IMG/VR virus record: IMGVR_UViG_2703718812_000020
Location: 1 to 7,777 of that record
DNA length: 7,777 nt
Source: a virus
Taxonomy: Duplodnaviria; Heunggongvirae; Uroviricota; Caudoviricetes
Reading direction: 5' to 3' (one strand)
Shown: in pieces, positions 2,673-5,586 of the stretch
Position numbering within the stretch: the stretch's first letter is position 1
Layout of the letters: every line of letters begins with the position of its first letter
The notes under the pieces: generated by a model
Told to the model about the DNA's origin: nothing
What the model saw: the letters and a program-made list of their open reading frames with translations, nothing else
The model's database searches: none
Made by a program: the position numbers and the translations under genes

Positions 2673-2879
2673 ATGGAAAAAATCACAACGGGTGTGTCAT
2701 ACACCACGTCAGCGGTGGGGACGGGATACTGGCTACTGCAGTTGCTGGACAAAGTCTCTCCGTCCCAGTGGGTGGCGATAGGTGTGCTGGGGAGTCTGCT
2801 GTTTGGCCTGCTGACGTATCTGACTAACCTGTATTTCAAAATCAGGGAGGACCGCCGTAAGACGGCGCGGGGAGACTAA
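2673..2879 (+). CDS. S: class II holin / pinholin, phage 21 S21-like (68 aa)
   Basis: [68 protein letters not shown] is near-collinear with the phage 21 S21 pinholin as I recall it (two TM segments, charged C-tail). The track ORF 2571..2879 is the same frame; 2673 is the start that gives the canonical length. Confidence 0.9.
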
Positions 2880-2883
2880 AGCG

Positions 2884-3873
2884 ATGAAGAAAAAATACGA
2901 ACTGGTTGTTAAAGAGATAAATAATTACCCGGATAAGATTGTTGTTACTGTGGCACTTGAAATTGGCGGGCATCCGTCGTTGTTGTTGCCACATGTGGCG
3001 ATTAGTCTTGACCGTACTGAAGGTGCCACGCTGGAGTTCTACGAAGCTGAGGCGAAAAAACAGGCGAAGCAGTTTTTCATGGATATTGTTGCCGGGTTAT
3101 GCGAAGGGGATGAACCGTCACCGGAAAAGCGCCCCGTAATTTTAGATGCGCAGGATGTATTGATAACCTACAAAGGAAAGCTACCGGGAAGAATTACTTG
3201 TTCTCTGAAGATGCCGCCGTCAACACTGCGGTCAGAAAAAGATGATGTTGAATCGCGTATTGAAAAACTGGAGTGCTATATCGCTGAATTGAAAAAAAGC
3301 ACCCCAACAAAAAATGAGGTGCTTGCAGCAGACGAAATGAAAGAAGCTATTTCTGATCGCGCGGCGAATCTAAGCTGCGCTTCATGGTTGAAAGAGCATC
3401 TTCAGCAGCCTGAAAAAAAACGCCGCGATGAGCAGTTTGCTGCGTTTTACGATTATTGCCGGAAAGTGATGAGCAGAAATCTCGCAGAGTGTTTCAGTAT
3501 TCATAATGATAATTTCAGTGACCTGGAATGGGAGTGTAACCGGCCATCCTTTGTTGTATCCGGTGATGCTGGGAAAATAACCATCTCAGAAAATGGAAAA
3601 GTAACACCGCCATCGCACCAGCATAGTGAGGAGCTCATTGAATTTGCCATTGATTACCTGAAGAACAATAAAAAGCAGGGGCTGATGAAGTGCATTGGTC
3701 GTTGCATGGGATATCTGCAGATAGCTGCTGAGATTGAAGCGCTGGCCAGTGGTGCGGACAAGGATGCAGTTGTGCGGGAGGCTCTTCTTCGTGATTTTGA
3801 TAATCCGCCCTTTAAAAAAGTGCCGGCTTACTGGTTTCATCCAGGACTGACTTATCTTAAAGGACGTATATAA
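2884..3873 (+). CDS. hypothetical protein, 329 aa, no recognisable domain; moron between holin and endolysin
   Basis: Long uninterrupted ORF starting 4 nt after the holin stop. No signal peptide, TM segment, Walker motif or catalytic signature that I can recognise; central stretch looks coiled-coil-like. The first 100 nt are about 38% GC by hand count, visibly AT-richer than the flanking lysis genes. Confidence 0.7.
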   Translation: MKKKYELVVKEINNYPDKIVVTVALEIGGHPSLLLPHVAISLDRTEGATLEFYEAEAKKQAKQFFMDIVAGLCEGDEPSPEKRPVILDAQDVLITYKGKLPGRITCSLKMPPSTLRSEKDDVESRIEKLECYIAELKKSTPTKNEVLAADEMKEAISDRAANLSCASWLKEHLQQPEKKRRDEQFAAFYDYCRKVMSRNLAECFSIHNDNFSDLEWECNRPSFVVSGDAGKITISENGKVTPPSHQHSEELIEFAIDYLKNNKKQGLMKCIGRCMGYLQIAAEIEALASGADKDAVVREALLRDFDNPPFKKVPAYWFHPGLTYLKGRI

Positions 3874-3915
3874 GCTGGCTCGTTATCTGTTGCCGATAAA
3901 TCCTGATAAATATCC

Positions 3916-4449
3916 ATGAACACCAAAATCAAATACGGCCTGTCGGCTGCCGTTCTGGCGCTGATTGCCGCTGGTGCGCCTGCGCCTGACATTCTCGACC
4001 AGTTTCTGGATGAAAAGGAAGGTAACCACACCACGGCATACCGTGATGGCGCGGGTATCTGGACCATCTGTCGCGGTGCCATTCTGGTGGATGGTAAACC
4101 TGTCGTCCCGGGCATGAAGTTGTCGAAGGAGAAATGCGACCAGGTTAACGCCATTGAGCGTGATAAGGCGCTGGCATGGGTGGAGAAAAACATCAAAGTG
4201 CCATTGACCGAACCCCAGAAAGCGGGGATCGCGTCATTCTGTCCGTACAACATTGGTCCCGGTAAGTGTTTCCCGTCGACGTTTTACAGACGAATTAATG
4301 CTGGTGATCGCAGGGGAGCATGTGAGGCGATTCGCTGGTGGATTAAGGACGGTGGCAGAGATTGCCGTATTCGTTCAAACAACTGCTACGGTCAGGTATC
4401 CCGTCGTGACCAGGAGAGCGCGCTGGCGTGCTGGGGTATCGACAGATAA
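3916..4449 (+). CDS. R: SAR endolysin (GH24 / T4-type lysozyme with N-terminal signal-anchor-release domain), phage 21 R21-like
   Basis: N-terminal Ala/Gly-rich weakly hydrophobic segment (KYGLSAAVLALIAAGAPAP) followed by E-x8-D-x5-T catalytic spacing (EGNHTTAYRDGAGIWT). A SAR endolysin is the expected partner of a pinholin. Confidence 0.9.
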   Translation: MNTKIKYGLSAAVLALIAAGAPAPDILDQFLDEKEGNHTTAYRDGAGIWTICRGAILVDGKPVVPGMKLSKEKCDQVNAIERDKALAWVEKNIKVPLTEPQKAGIASFCPYNIGPGKCFPSTFYRRINAGDRRGACEAIRWWIKDGGRDCRIRSNNCYGQVSRRDQESALACWGIDR

Positions 4450-4539
4450 GCAGAATATTTTGCTGAAAAATAAGGCATGGCCACGCGGGCGGATAACATG
4501 AAATCCTGCGAACTGGCGAAACGTAAGTGAATAAAAGTA

Positions 4540-4578
4540 AAAACCCCGTTTGTTGGCAGCAAGCGGGGTTTTGTTTTT
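4540..4578 (+). terminator. rho-independent terminator after the endolysin (13-bp stem with one G-U, 7-nt loop, U-rich tail)
   Basis: aaaaccccgtttg-ttggcag-caagcggggtttt followed by gttttt. Flanked by A's upstream, so it may also work on the minus strand. Confidence 0.55.
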
Positions 4579-4643
4579 ATGGCAGTAAGCTATGGGAGGC
4601 TGCCTTGATTGATTTTAGCAAACTGATTAGGGAGTTGCGACTC

Positions 4644-4739
4644 ATGATTAGTCAATTACCAAACTGGAAATTTTTGCTGGTCTGGAGCATCCCTTTTTTA
4701 TGGGTAGTATCCCAGTTAATTGTGGCAATTAAGGGGTAG
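4644..4739 (+). CDS. candidate micro-ORF P1, 31 aa hydrophobic (MISQLPNWKFLLVWSIPFLWVVSQLIVAIKG)
   Basis: ATG with AGGGAG 9 nt upstream; single TM-like segment; its stop lies 2 nt before the next ATG. Sub-part of the track ORF 4527..4739. Confidence 0.3.
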   Translation: MISQLPNWKFLLVWSIPFLWVVSQLIVAIKG

Positions 4740-4741
4740 CT

Positions 4742-4873
4742 ATGTCAGACAAACTCATAACGCCGGCAAAGGTCCTGTGTGTGATTGTCGGTATTTCATT
4801 TTCACTAATGCTGGTTGCTCTTTTTCTGTCCCTCGCCTGGGTGATGTTGTCTTCGTCGGGGCTGCTGGGGTGA
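4742..4873 (+). CDS. candidate micro-ORF P2, 43 aa hydrophobic (MSDKLITPAKVLCVIVGISFSLMLVALFLSLAWVMLSSSGLLG)
   Basis: ATG with AAGGGG 5 nt upstream; one clear TM-like helix; E. coli-like codon use. Below the track's length cut-off. Confidence 0.35.
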   Translation: MSDKLITPAKVLCVIVGISFSLMLVALFLSLAWVMLSSSGLLG

Positions 4874-4875
4874 CA

Positions 4876-4992
4876 GTGACTGATGACATCAGCAGAGCGC
4901 TGGCTTTTGCTATTAAGTGGGTGGCTGTTGGTATTGCTGTGTCTCCGATGCTGTATGGGCTGGCAAAACTGGTCATTGCGCTGAAATCGTGA
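4876..4992 (+). CDS. candidate micro-ORF P3, about 38 aa hydrophobic ((V/M)TDDISRALAFAIKWVAVGIAVSPMLYGLAKLVIALKS); GTG start at 4876 or 4870
   Basis: GTG start 2 nt after the P2 stop with GGGG upstream. Its N-half resembles P4 and its C-terminus resembles that of P1. An overlapping alternative frame from ATG 4883 cannot be excluded. Confidence 0.35.
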   Translation: MTDDISRALAFAIKWVAVGIAVSPMLYGLAKLVIALKS

Positions 4993-5003
4993 ACTTTAAA
5001 AAG

Positions 5004-5090
5004 ATGAGTGCTGAACTTATTCGGGCAATGGCATTTGCCATTCGTATTGTGGCCATTGCTGTTCTGGTCTGGGCAATCCGTTGGTGGTGA
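5004..5090 (+). CDS. candidate micro-ORF P4, 28 aa hydrophobic ([28 protein letters not shown])
   Basis: Its stop lies 1 nt before the Rz ATG. Resembles the N-half of P3, and several differences between them are synonymous at the codon level (aga/cgg Arg, gct/gcc Ala), which points to selection on the protein. Confidence 0.35.
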
Positions 5091-5091
5091 T

Positions 5092-5586
5092 ATGAACCGT
5101 GTTCTGTGTGTGGTGATTATTGTCCTGCTGGTAGCCTGTGGTGTGCTTAGTCTGGGGCTGAATCATTACCGCGATAACGCCATCACCTACAAAGCGCAGC
5201 GCGATAAAAAAGCCAGAGAGCTGGAGCTGGCAAACGCAACTATTACTGATATGCAGGTGCGCCAGCGCGATGTTGCTGCGCTCGATGCAAAATACTCGAG
5301 GGAATTAGCCGATGCGAGAGCTGAAAATGAAACTCTGCGCGCTGATGTTGCCGCTGGTCGTAAGCGCCTGCGGATCAACGCCACCTGCCCCGGTACCGTG
5401 CGTGAAGCCACCGGCACCTCCGGCGTGGATAATGCAACCGGCCCCCGACTGGCAGACACCGCTGAACGGGATTATTTCATCCTCAGAGAACGGTTGATGA
5501 CAATGCAGAAGCAGCTGGAAGGGGCGCAGGAATATATCCGCACTCAGTGCACTAAGCTGGCTTTTTATTATCCGGAGGATACATGA
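5092..5586 (+). CDS. Rz: Rz i-spanin (inner-membrane spanin subunit)
   Basis: [55 protein letters not shown]... is near-collinear with lambda Rz as recalled ([36 protein letters not shown]). The track ORF 5008..5586 is the same frame; 5092 matches the lambda start. Confidence 0.93.
5312..5497 (+). CDS. Rz1: Rz1 o-spanin lipoprotein, embedded in the +1 frame of Rz
   Basis: [25 protein letters not shown]...[29 protein letters not shown] has a lipobox (LVVSAC) and the Pro-rich core, closely matching lambda Rz1 as recalled. Confidence 0.9.

Follow-up and report, generated by a model that had tools for sequence, protein, structure and literature searches.

A predicted terminator hairpin heads a portable module of micro open reading frames between the endolysin and spanin genes of lambdoid prophages

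Introduction

The closest described relatives of the locus studied here are the lysis cassettes of phage 21 and DLP12, in which a PF04971 holin, an endolysin homologous to R21 and RrrD (with E35-D44-T50 and an A/G/S-rich N-terminus) and embedded Rz/Rz1 spanin genes overlap or abut one another. We analysed a 7,777-nt stretch of DNA from a tailed virus (IMG/VR record IMGVR_UViG_2703718812_000020, positions 1 to 7,777; hereafter the window) that carries a cassette with the same components, but with 1,036 bp between the holin gene S and the endolysin gene R, 642 bp between R and Rz, and an S gene without the upstream start. The R-Rz gap holds a terminator-like hairpin followed by four micro open reading frames (micro-ORFs A to D), and this hairpin and its relation to the micro-ORFs are the subject of this paper.

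Qin of Escherichia coli K-12 shares with the window a ydfR-family gene between holin and endolysin and an RrrQ-type endolysin. However, the Qin YdfR has 103 aa and overlaps rrrQ, which in turn overlaps a DUF2514-type Rz, and neither hairpin nor micro-ORFs are present; in the window, by comparison, the YdfR domain is fused to ~230 further residues. The late regions of the Shiga toxin (Stx) phages H-19B, VT2-Sakai and 933W-like phages carry the same S, R and Rz. The same hairpin and one A-type micro-ORF precede Rz in H-19B, and VT2-Sakai-type phages keep a B-type micro-ORF next to Rz. In VT2-Sakai, S abuts R, and ant replaces the hairpin from ~nt 88 after the R stop. The window differs from these phages in its four-ORF array and in carrying no stx.

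Two further kinds of element invite comparison. Morons of lambdoid late operons (for example lambda bor and lom; Juhala et al. 2000, as cited in PMC4104026) are likewise extra, mosaic, mobile DNA in a Q-antiterminated operon. Classical morons have a promoter upstream, a terminator downstream and lysogen expression, whereas the module described here has its terminator upstream, no detectable promoter, and the orientation of the late genes. The tR'-like terminators under lambda-type Q resemble the window hairpin in their GC-rich stem and U tract, their location on the late strand 3' of a Q-like gene, and their occurrence several in series; unlike it, tR' is fixed, directly after the late promoter, whereas the window hairpin is tied to a small gene and varies in position between phages. 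The literature searched yielded no description of the hairpin and micro-ORF unit, or of genes or terminators between R and Rz.

Results

Structure and conservation of the hairpin

On the plus strand between R and Rz, a 15-pair stem (6 GC pairs) with a 3-nt loop occupies 4540-4572 and is followed directly by a U-rich tail (GTTTTTAT; GUUUUUAU) that extends to 4580. An A-rich tract (~4531-4543) overlaps the base of the stem, and the whole stretch, 4526-4580, makes up the 5' end of the module. The predicted fold (-24.2 kcal/mol, z = -4.8) was equalled by none of 200 shuffled sequences. The corresponding minus-strand RNA reaches -15.3 kcal/mol, with G.U pairs accounting for the gap; since the plus-strand RNA is far more stable, selection would act on the late-strand transcript. 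With a GC-rich stem-loop and a U-rich tract directly after it on the transcribed strand, the element has the sequence features of an intrinsic terminator, and we predict that it is a canonical element of that type.

A 76-nt region comprising the hairpin is present in 1,978 of 5,426 complete E. coli genomes, and no annotated feature lies under the hairpin in the records listed (5 of 1,984). Every allele class of the R-Rz gap that lacks ant has kept the hairpin, including those of the phage records H-19B and PhiR12_2_star. Within E. coli, the hairpin is nearly invariant and its 5' arm unchanged, so that covariation there is uninformative; it became visible only once Salmonella, Rac-SA53-type and Pseudomonas variants were added. 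The upper stems of these variants differ while pairing is kept (GTTTGTTG/CAGCAAGC, GACTG/CAGTC, GGGTG/CACTT, GAGAGC/GGCTTC and GGTACG/CGTCC). Among the resulting 17 distinct sequences, compared to 500 shuffles and to slid controls, 94.9% of the cells in the stem are paired (86.1 ± 1.1 in shuffles), the covariation score is 0.247 (0.081 in shuffles), and 23 cells have changed on both sides (7.2 in shuffles). None of the 500 shuffles reached the observed pairing, score or number of both-side changes, and the slid controls were far lower. The stem is supported by compensatory base changes across E. coli, Salmonella and Pseudomonas phages and is not a chance feature. The original prediction of a terminator at 4540-4578, between R and Rz, is supported, at the level of sequence and structure, by the canonical form of the hairpin, its folding energy and its covariation.

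A second small hairpin (helix 2; GGCAG...CTGCC, 4581-4604, plus strand) follows, immediately 5' of the TTG start of the first micro-ORF; its loop contains the Shine-Dalgarno sequence GGGAGG (4594-4599). Of its cells, 87% are paired, two pairs show changes on both sides, and in most variants it lies near the ribosome-binding site. Its status as a firmly conserved element is supported in part, given that the registers differ between H-19B-type and window-type leaders and that RNAalifold did not call it as a consensus.

We also considered, and rejected, a small RNA (sRNA) in the R 3' region. The only Rfam match in an E-value scan of the whole window was STnc100 at 221-393, with none in the R-Rz gap. 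The known prophage sRNAs (STnc100/PasD, PasA/C, PasB, AgvB, AsxR, Esr41 and the EcOnc set) showed no match or shared position in the gap: AgvB, AsxR and EcOnc in Sakai and PasA-D in E2348/69 sit elsewhere. Nor is there a peak of Hfq-bound RNA in the gap in the tables of enterohaemorrhagic E. coli (EHEC) Hfq-CRAC and enteropathogenic E. coli (EPEC) RIL-seq, both from uninduced cells.

The hairpin and micro-ORF unit outside the lysis genes

The same hairpin accompanies micro-ORFs at sites far from lysis genes. In Salmonella phage SEN34, Escherichia phage Rac-SA53 and Actinobacillus phage pPE4, the hairpin, leader and an A-type ORF lie between the baseplate spike and wedge genes. Pseudomonas phage YMC11/02/R656 carries the module in a tail-region cluster of small ORFs, with 50% peptide identity. 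In viral contig L410, where the first ORF is C-type and a D-type ORF follows later, the module separates the gene for an Ig-domain structural (head) protein from that for a minor tail protein. These loci came from a wider search seeded with the version of Salmonella phage SPN3UB; retrieval via R, Rz or the peptide biases the frequencies of the contexts, and a leader-pattern scan of viral contigs gave mostly R-Rz contexts among the matches listed.

The hairpin lies 32-41 nt (stem end to start codon) upstream of all 10 distinct A-type peptide variants (210 loci). The same hairpin and leader also precede C-type and D-type first ORFs, and the terminator is 5' of the ORFs in all module variants. 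At the other boundary, homology with the ant alleles, Rac-SA53 and SEN34 starts 12-15 nt before the hairpin; because only these ~12-15 nt upstream are common to the contexts, no promoter appears to travel with the hairpin. Since the hairpin occurs with micro-ORFs also far from the endolysin, it belongs to the micro-ORF module and not to R. Judged by these sequence comparisons, it is the 5' part of a portable hairpin and micro-ORF module, the two being linked in four unrelated genomic contexts. The proposal that the terminator is internal to the lysis cassette therefore describes its location between R and Rz correctly, but not its affiliation, as the hairpin is the 5' part of a portable module. 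We rejected the alternative that the hairpin is the 3' end of the endolysin gene, as it is found with micro-ORFs where no endolysin gene is nearby.

At the non-lysis sites of YMC11/02/R656 (L142, 2171-2287) and L410 (4109-4341), more small single-transmembrane ORFs follow the first micro-ORF; since small-ORF arrays thus also occur outside the lysis context, they would be a property of the module and not of the R-Rz site. SPN3UB has one more hydrophobic ORF, of 36 aa (L094, 1394-1501), which lies 5' of the hairpin module, overlaps the stop of the endolysin gene and adds a further small membrane peptide to a lysis cassette.

The micro-ORF array

In the window, the array fills 4605-5090 on the plus strand, with spacers of 0-11 nt or start/stop overlaps, and the stop of D lies 1 nt before the Rz ATG. 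Micro-ORF A (44 aa, LIDFSKLIRELRLM..., 4605-4739, phrog_6632) and B (43 aa, 4742-4873, phrog_4906, a PGAP CDS) each have one transmembrane segment. C (~40 aa, 4870-4992, phrog_1115/3246/4493) has a GTG start that overlaps the B stop, and D (28 aa, or 33 aa from GTG 4989; 5004-5090; phrog_4493/3246; a PGAP CDS) ends in ..IRWW. Every PHROG matched by the four families is labelled 'unknown function'. Signatures of the families include DFSKLIRE... in A, MSDKLIT...SSSGLLG in B, and ...TDDISRALAFAIKW...ALKS in C.

Pairwise dN/dS is lowest in C (~0.09), followed by A (~0.15), D (~0.24) and B (0.58); A, C and D are under purifying selection. Ten residues of A are invariant from E. coli to Pseudomonas phages. 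The 43-aa length of B is retained in most matches, all matches with a source name are from E. coli, and B also adjoins Rz in the ant alleles. C is without the N-terminal 20 residues of a 60-aa form (MAKYKRILLRLTMKNGLELKAP...) found in the 487-bp alleles; the break is the junction with B (GTGA, 4870-4873), and PGAP starts C at 4837. Alleles differ in the families that they combine: A occurs alone (298 bp, as in H-19B), as does D; C is paired with either D or B; the window has A+B+C+D; and ant is accompanied by B.

Allele classes at the S-R and R-Rz junctions

Known cassettes are compact: in DLP12, essD, rrrD and rzpD overlap, in Qin, essQ-ydfR-rrrQ-rzpQ are contiguous, and R abuts Rz in Qin, DLP12, lambda, phage-21-like prophages and prophages of Hafnia, Pantoea and Phytobacter. 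Relative to these canonical contiguous cassettes, the split is real. A survey of 87 loci with an identity of 94% or more in R showed ~18 discrete S-R distances between 4 and 1,316 bp, with S next to R in VT2-Sakai alone, and the R-Rz distance falls into six classes (298, 335, 438, ~487, 642 and ~993 bp) and is never zero. The 642-bp gap of the window is matched over at least 80% in 587 complete E. coli genomes. Within this endolysin lineage, the split is therefore the rule and not a peculiarity of the window. The original prediction of a cassette split by insertions accordingly stands against DLP12, lambda and phage-21-like cassettes, but not as a special feature of the window, since it is the norm among the 87 loci.

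Alleles without ant have the first ~130 nt after R in common; this stretch contains the hairpin, and divergence sets in as soon as the U tract has ended. Alleles with ant (VT2-Sakai type) already differ from ~nt 88 past the R stop, just before the hairpin, and until that point share the R 3' untranslated stretch (4450-4525, plus strand). From these patterns, both junctions, S-R and R-Rz, are apparent recombination hot spots.

Transcription through the hairpin

In the 99.9%-identical parent prophage, a Q-like antiterminator is encoded on the same strand, ~5 kb 5' of S (PF06530, 32 bits, above the cut-off; phrog_753, 3e-80). In SEN34, with the module at another site, and SPN3UB, with it at the same site, one long block of late genes likewise begins with an annotated Q-like gene. 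At least five other plus-strand terminator-like sites lie between Q and R, including 4541-4558 and 6067-6084 of the SJ7 prophage locus (L001) and 418-436 and 2592-2618 of the window. A simple sigma-70 consensus scan, which a weak or activator-dependent promoter could escape, found no sigma-70-like plus-strand promoter between 4578 and 5092. Lambdoid Q makes RNA polymerase resistant to terminators over the whole late operon. Because no promoter was found after the hairpin, structural genes lie downstream on the same strand, and a Q-like gene lies upstream, we favour Q-dependent read-through as the best explanation, with a probability of roughly 0.6: a Q-modified polymerase would pass the hairpin, and an unmodified one would stop there. 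That spanin expression would need such read-through, as had been suggested, agrees with the Q-like gene upstream and the lack of a promoter-like site after the hairpin.

The R-Rz junction carries a promoter-less mobile module composed of an A-rich tract, the hairpin with its U tract, a leader with a ribosome-binding site, and one to four micro-ORFs, predicted to be tightly packed genes for 28-60-aa single-pass membrane peptides with the last stop 1 to 7 nt before the Rz start. This close spacing suggests that translation of Rz may be coupled to that of the last micro-ORF. During lytic growth, Q-modified polymerase from the late promoter would ignore the hairpin, as it would the other terminators of the late operon, and would go on through the micro-ORFs and Rz/Rz1 into all genes for packaging, head and tail. 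An unmodified polymerase would stop at the hairpin, and the membrane peptides and downstream genes would stay silent in the lysogen.

Several observations weigh against this explanation. A working cassette can dispense with the hairpin, as ant-carrying Stx phages replace it and R abuts Rz in Qin, DLP12, lambda and the Hafnia/Pantoea prophages. Purifying selection on micro-ORF B is weak (dN/dS 0.58), and no Q homologue was identified in Pseudomonas phage YMC11/02/R656. The rationale of silencing is itself weak at the R-Rz site, the lethal genes S and R being upstream of the hairpin.

The main rivals are a partial attenuator and an RNA stability or translation leader. As a leaky attenuator, the hairpin would stop a fixed fraction of polymerases even with Q, such that S and R are expressed above the micro-ORFs, spanins and structural genes. 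Internal partial terminators are known to set operon stoichiometry, and the strong stem, the long U tract, and the conservation of the hairpin at the boundary between an enzyme gene and membrane-protein genes would all suit such a role. However, SEN34, Rac-SA53 and L410 carry the element in the middle of a tail or head-tail operon, where a fixed drop has no obvious logic, and Q-modified complexes read through terminators efficiently; we regard attenuation as unlikely. Alternatively, the hairpin could guard the 3' end of a cleaved S-R message, or could be a 5' stabiliser or translation-control leader of the micro-ORF message. Its travelling with the micro-ORF at a near-constant 32-41 nt between stem end and start codon points in this direction, as do the contact of the second small hairpin with the ribosome-binding site in most variants and the specificity of the structure to the plus-strand RNA. 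Against such a function, conserved A and U tracts on either side of a GC-rich stem mark an intrinsic terminator, whereas a stabiliser would not need them, and the register of the second hairpin varies between alleles, with no consensus call; we hold a stability or processing role to be quite unlikely.

The original prediction had also raised the possibility that the terminator decouples the downstream genes, with late transcription ending after R and a separate promoter driving the micro-ORFs, Rz/Rz1 and the genes beyond. A canonical terminator and a self-contained, mobile module would fit such an arrangement. It would, however, also cut off the terminase, head and tail genes, which lie downstream on the same strand, the consensus scan gave no plus-strand promoter-like site in 4578-5092, the ~12-15 nt shared upstream of the hairpin leave no room for a conserved promoter in the module, and phages isolated as such (the plaque-forming H-19B, PhiR12_2_star and SPN3UB) carry the hairpin. 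We consider decoupling highly improbable. Equally improbable is a toxin-antitoxin-like arrangement, in which a peptide resembling type I toxins in size and hydrophobicity would be controlled by an antisense RNA starting downstream on the minus strand and ending at the hairpin, as T tracts flanking the hairpin on both strands and one minus-strand promoter-like site (4748-4719) might suggest, but this site lies at the A/B junction and is specific to the 642-bp allele, promoter-like sites are within chance expectation (6 vs. 8.9 expected), G.U pairs weaken the minus-strand hairpin (-15.3 vs. -24.2), and the region has neither an Rfam match nor, in the EHEC and EPEC data sets, an Hfq-bound RNA peak. 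We take the 4748-4719 site, as a promoter for an antisense RNA, to be a chance occurrence, given that it is allele-specific and that promoter-like sites are not in excess.

Holin, endolysin and spanin genes

All elements listed in the original prediction, including a 329-aa ORF and the micro-ORF array between R and Rz, are found at the positions it gave. A plus-strand terminator-like hairpin with a T tract (2592-2625; 11 pairs, 7 GC; TTTTTGTTTTC tail; -22.6 kcal/mol, z = -4.5) lies ~50 nt 5' of S. The S gene (2673-2879, plus strand) encodes a 68-aa class II holin of the phage 21 (pinholin) type, which matches PF04971 at E = 1.4e-32 (score 112 bits, cut-off 26; coverage of 63 of 64 profile positions) as well as phrog_9876 and the holin family phrog_20. 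Its first segment (residues 5-24; 55% A/G/S/T, mean hydropathy 0.42) is weakly hydrophobic and resembles a signal-anchor-release (SAR) segment, and its second is strongly hydrophobic (2.14 in the window starting at residue 34). By these hallmarks, S is predicted to be a pinholin. The dual-start motif is missing: 2664-2675 reads ATA CAT CAG ATG, with ATA for ATG, and because of this change only the short S68 form could be made in the window. Among 81 related loci, 70 read ATG TAC CAG ATG and two ATG GAC CAG ATG.

The S-R slot holds a long YdfR-family protein of 329 aa (2884-3873, plus strand), composed of a DUF1327 N-domain, a helical middle and a C-terminal module. PF07041 (DUF1327/YdfR) matches aa 1-100 (1.1e-38), the other 229 aa lying beyond the Pfam model, and phrog_1085 matches end to end (E = 2e-180). 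Full-length intact homologues have 51-96% identity, and one 90% cluster comprises 648 sequences. The C-terminal half (coiled-coil plus ~130 residues) also occurs as a stand-alone gene of 185-213 aa in the same slot of other prophages. PGAP/RefSeq calls the ORF in SJ7 (L001, 9485-9820) a C-terminally truncated YdfR pseudogene, yet the frame is intact and conserved in hundreds of genomes. By these matches, the ORF encodes an intact, long member of the modular YdfR/DUF1327 family and is one allele of a hypervariable S-R slot that is usually occupied by a ydfR-family gene. AlphaFold2, run with 24 sequences, gave a model too poor for interpretation, with a mean pLDDT of 51.5 and only residues 1-70 and 220-290 moderately confident. 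The simple sigma-70 consensus scan found no plus-strand promoter-like site in the S-R slot. The sole experimental lead comes from Qin YdfR, of which residues 1-72 bind the catalytic half of RNase E and which co-purifies RNA (PMC13232886).

R (3916-4449, plus strand) encodes a 177-aa, RrrQ-like endolysin of the SAR type, T4-lysozyme/GH24-like (PF00959), which aligns to the phage 21 lysozyme R21 (3HDE, E = 1.3e-16; 3HDF) and to RrrD (4ZPU). Its translation contains the catalytic triad Glu-8aa-Asp-5aa-Thr (E35, D44, T50). Residues 7-24 (YGLSAAVLALIAAGAPAP) are 56% A/G/S/T with a mean hydropathy of 1.48, vs. 3.24 for the Rz membrane anchor, and Pro follows both Ala-x-Ala sites. Fold, triad and N-terminal segment are the hallmarks by which R is predicted to be a SAR endolysin, and the same pinholin/SAR endolysin prediction has been made for nearly all Stx phages in a published survey (PMC8136144).

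Rz (5092-5586, plus strand; PF03245, E = 7.9e-50) encodes a 164-aa i-spanin with an N-terminal transmembrane segment (hydropathy 3.24) and is 70% identical to lambda Rz. The o-spanin lipoprotein Rz1 (5312-5497, plus strand; PF06085, 1.7e-21; lipobox VSAC) is encoded wholly inside Rz in the +1 frame. The Pfam matches, the R21/RrrD alignment and the identity to lambda Rz uphold the earlier assignment of an S21-like pinholin, a SAR-type endolysin and lambda-like Rz/Rz1. The lysis cassette itself is ordinary, and lambdoid prophages of E. coli, Stx phages among them, commonly carry it in the split state.

An Rz 70% identical to that of the window over residues 1-153 also occurs in ~25 contigs of unrelated taxa (Pseudomonas, Kitasatospora, Oceanobacillus, Shewanella, Bacteroidetes metagenome-assembled genomes and others). 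ORFs next to Rz in one of them (L096) read as lambda S and R, and several of the ~25 (L096-L118 and others) are ~48.5 kb long; these contigs look like contamination of assemblies by lambda control DNA.

Gene neighbourhood

The window is late-region DNA of a lambdoid E. coli prophage. Prophages of SJ7, O45:H2 FWSEC0003 and O103:H2 12009 match bases 2400-5900 at 99.9% identity, and this stretch is present whole in 38 of the 5,426 complete E. coli genomes. On a single strand, SJ7 has replication genes, a Q-like protein, tRNAs, TerB, DUF3927, an esterase, the holin, 'YdfR' and the lysozyme, followed by three small hypothetical genes, the 'lysis protein' (Rz), terminase, portal, protease and capsid genes. 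The terminase, head and tail genes are thus downstream of the hairpin on the late strand. The window is without stx.

The STnc100 match (221-393, plus strand; 104 bits vs. a gathering score of 47) lies between DUF3927 and the esterase gene, just before the terminator-like hairpin at 418-436 (plus strand); a 2026 preprint relates STnc100 to the EPEC sRNA PasD. The sialate-esterase-like gene (SASA/DUF6645; 659-2380, or 531-2380 in PGAP) is flagged as frameshifted in the reference annotation of a near-identical prophage. Directly after its stop, a convergent minus-strand element (~2445-2385) has a 5' part like the published sRNA PasA and a strong terminator hairpin (2417-2388, minus strand, -22.7 kcal/mol), and is probably an sRNA gene of the PasA/PasC type.

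Downstream, a 74-aa ORF (5583-5807, plus strand) overlaps the Rz stop (ATGA). Its match to a PHROG of unknown function is confined to positions 100-172 of 291, and the ORF is probably a gene fragment. Further downstream of Rz, the minus strand carries a YlcI/YnfO (DUF3950) gene (6441-6626). The Hfq-bound RNA EcOnc11 of Sakai prophage Sp10 maps just 3' of Rz on the opposite strand, and EcOnc10 (Sp12) and EcOnc12 (Sp9) look homologous to EcOnc11 by score and offset.

Discussion

Placed beside the morons, the sites analysed here share one feature and reverse another. The S-R and R-Rz slots and the baseplate and head-tail sites all contain additional DNA where related phages have neighbouring genes. 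The reversed feature is the moron arrangement of an own promoter upstream and an own terminator downstream: the terminator of the module is upstream, and no plus-strand promoter-like site was found in 4578-5092. Why a terminator should precede a promoter-less micro-gene is a matter for conjecture, and our preferred guess is that it gates membrane-active peptides on antitermination. Going further, 'terminator-first', promoter-less micro-genes might constitute a distinct, undescribed class of mobile late-operon cassette, the expression of which would, because of the upstream terminator, be strictly dependent on processive antitermination. The 28-60-aa peptides would then act as effectors, for example by depolarising the membrane and thereby modulating the timing of lysis in pinholin/SAR-endolysin phages, or in another late function. 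The cassettes would have spread among Q-regulated phages, from those of Escherichia to those of Pseudomonas, and between their lysis, baseplate and head-tail junctions. We regard this wider proposal as tentative, possible rather than probable.

Roughly one in three complete E. coli genomes contains the R-Rz element, as do classic phages such as H-19B, and it behaves as a portable unit. If the hairpin gates small membrane peptides on Q, it would represent a new design of accessory phage gene, the mirror image of a moron. The peptides would then be candidate regulators of lysis timing or of toxin release in Stx phages, and the module would offer a simple natural test-bed in which terminator strength is set against Q-type antitermination.

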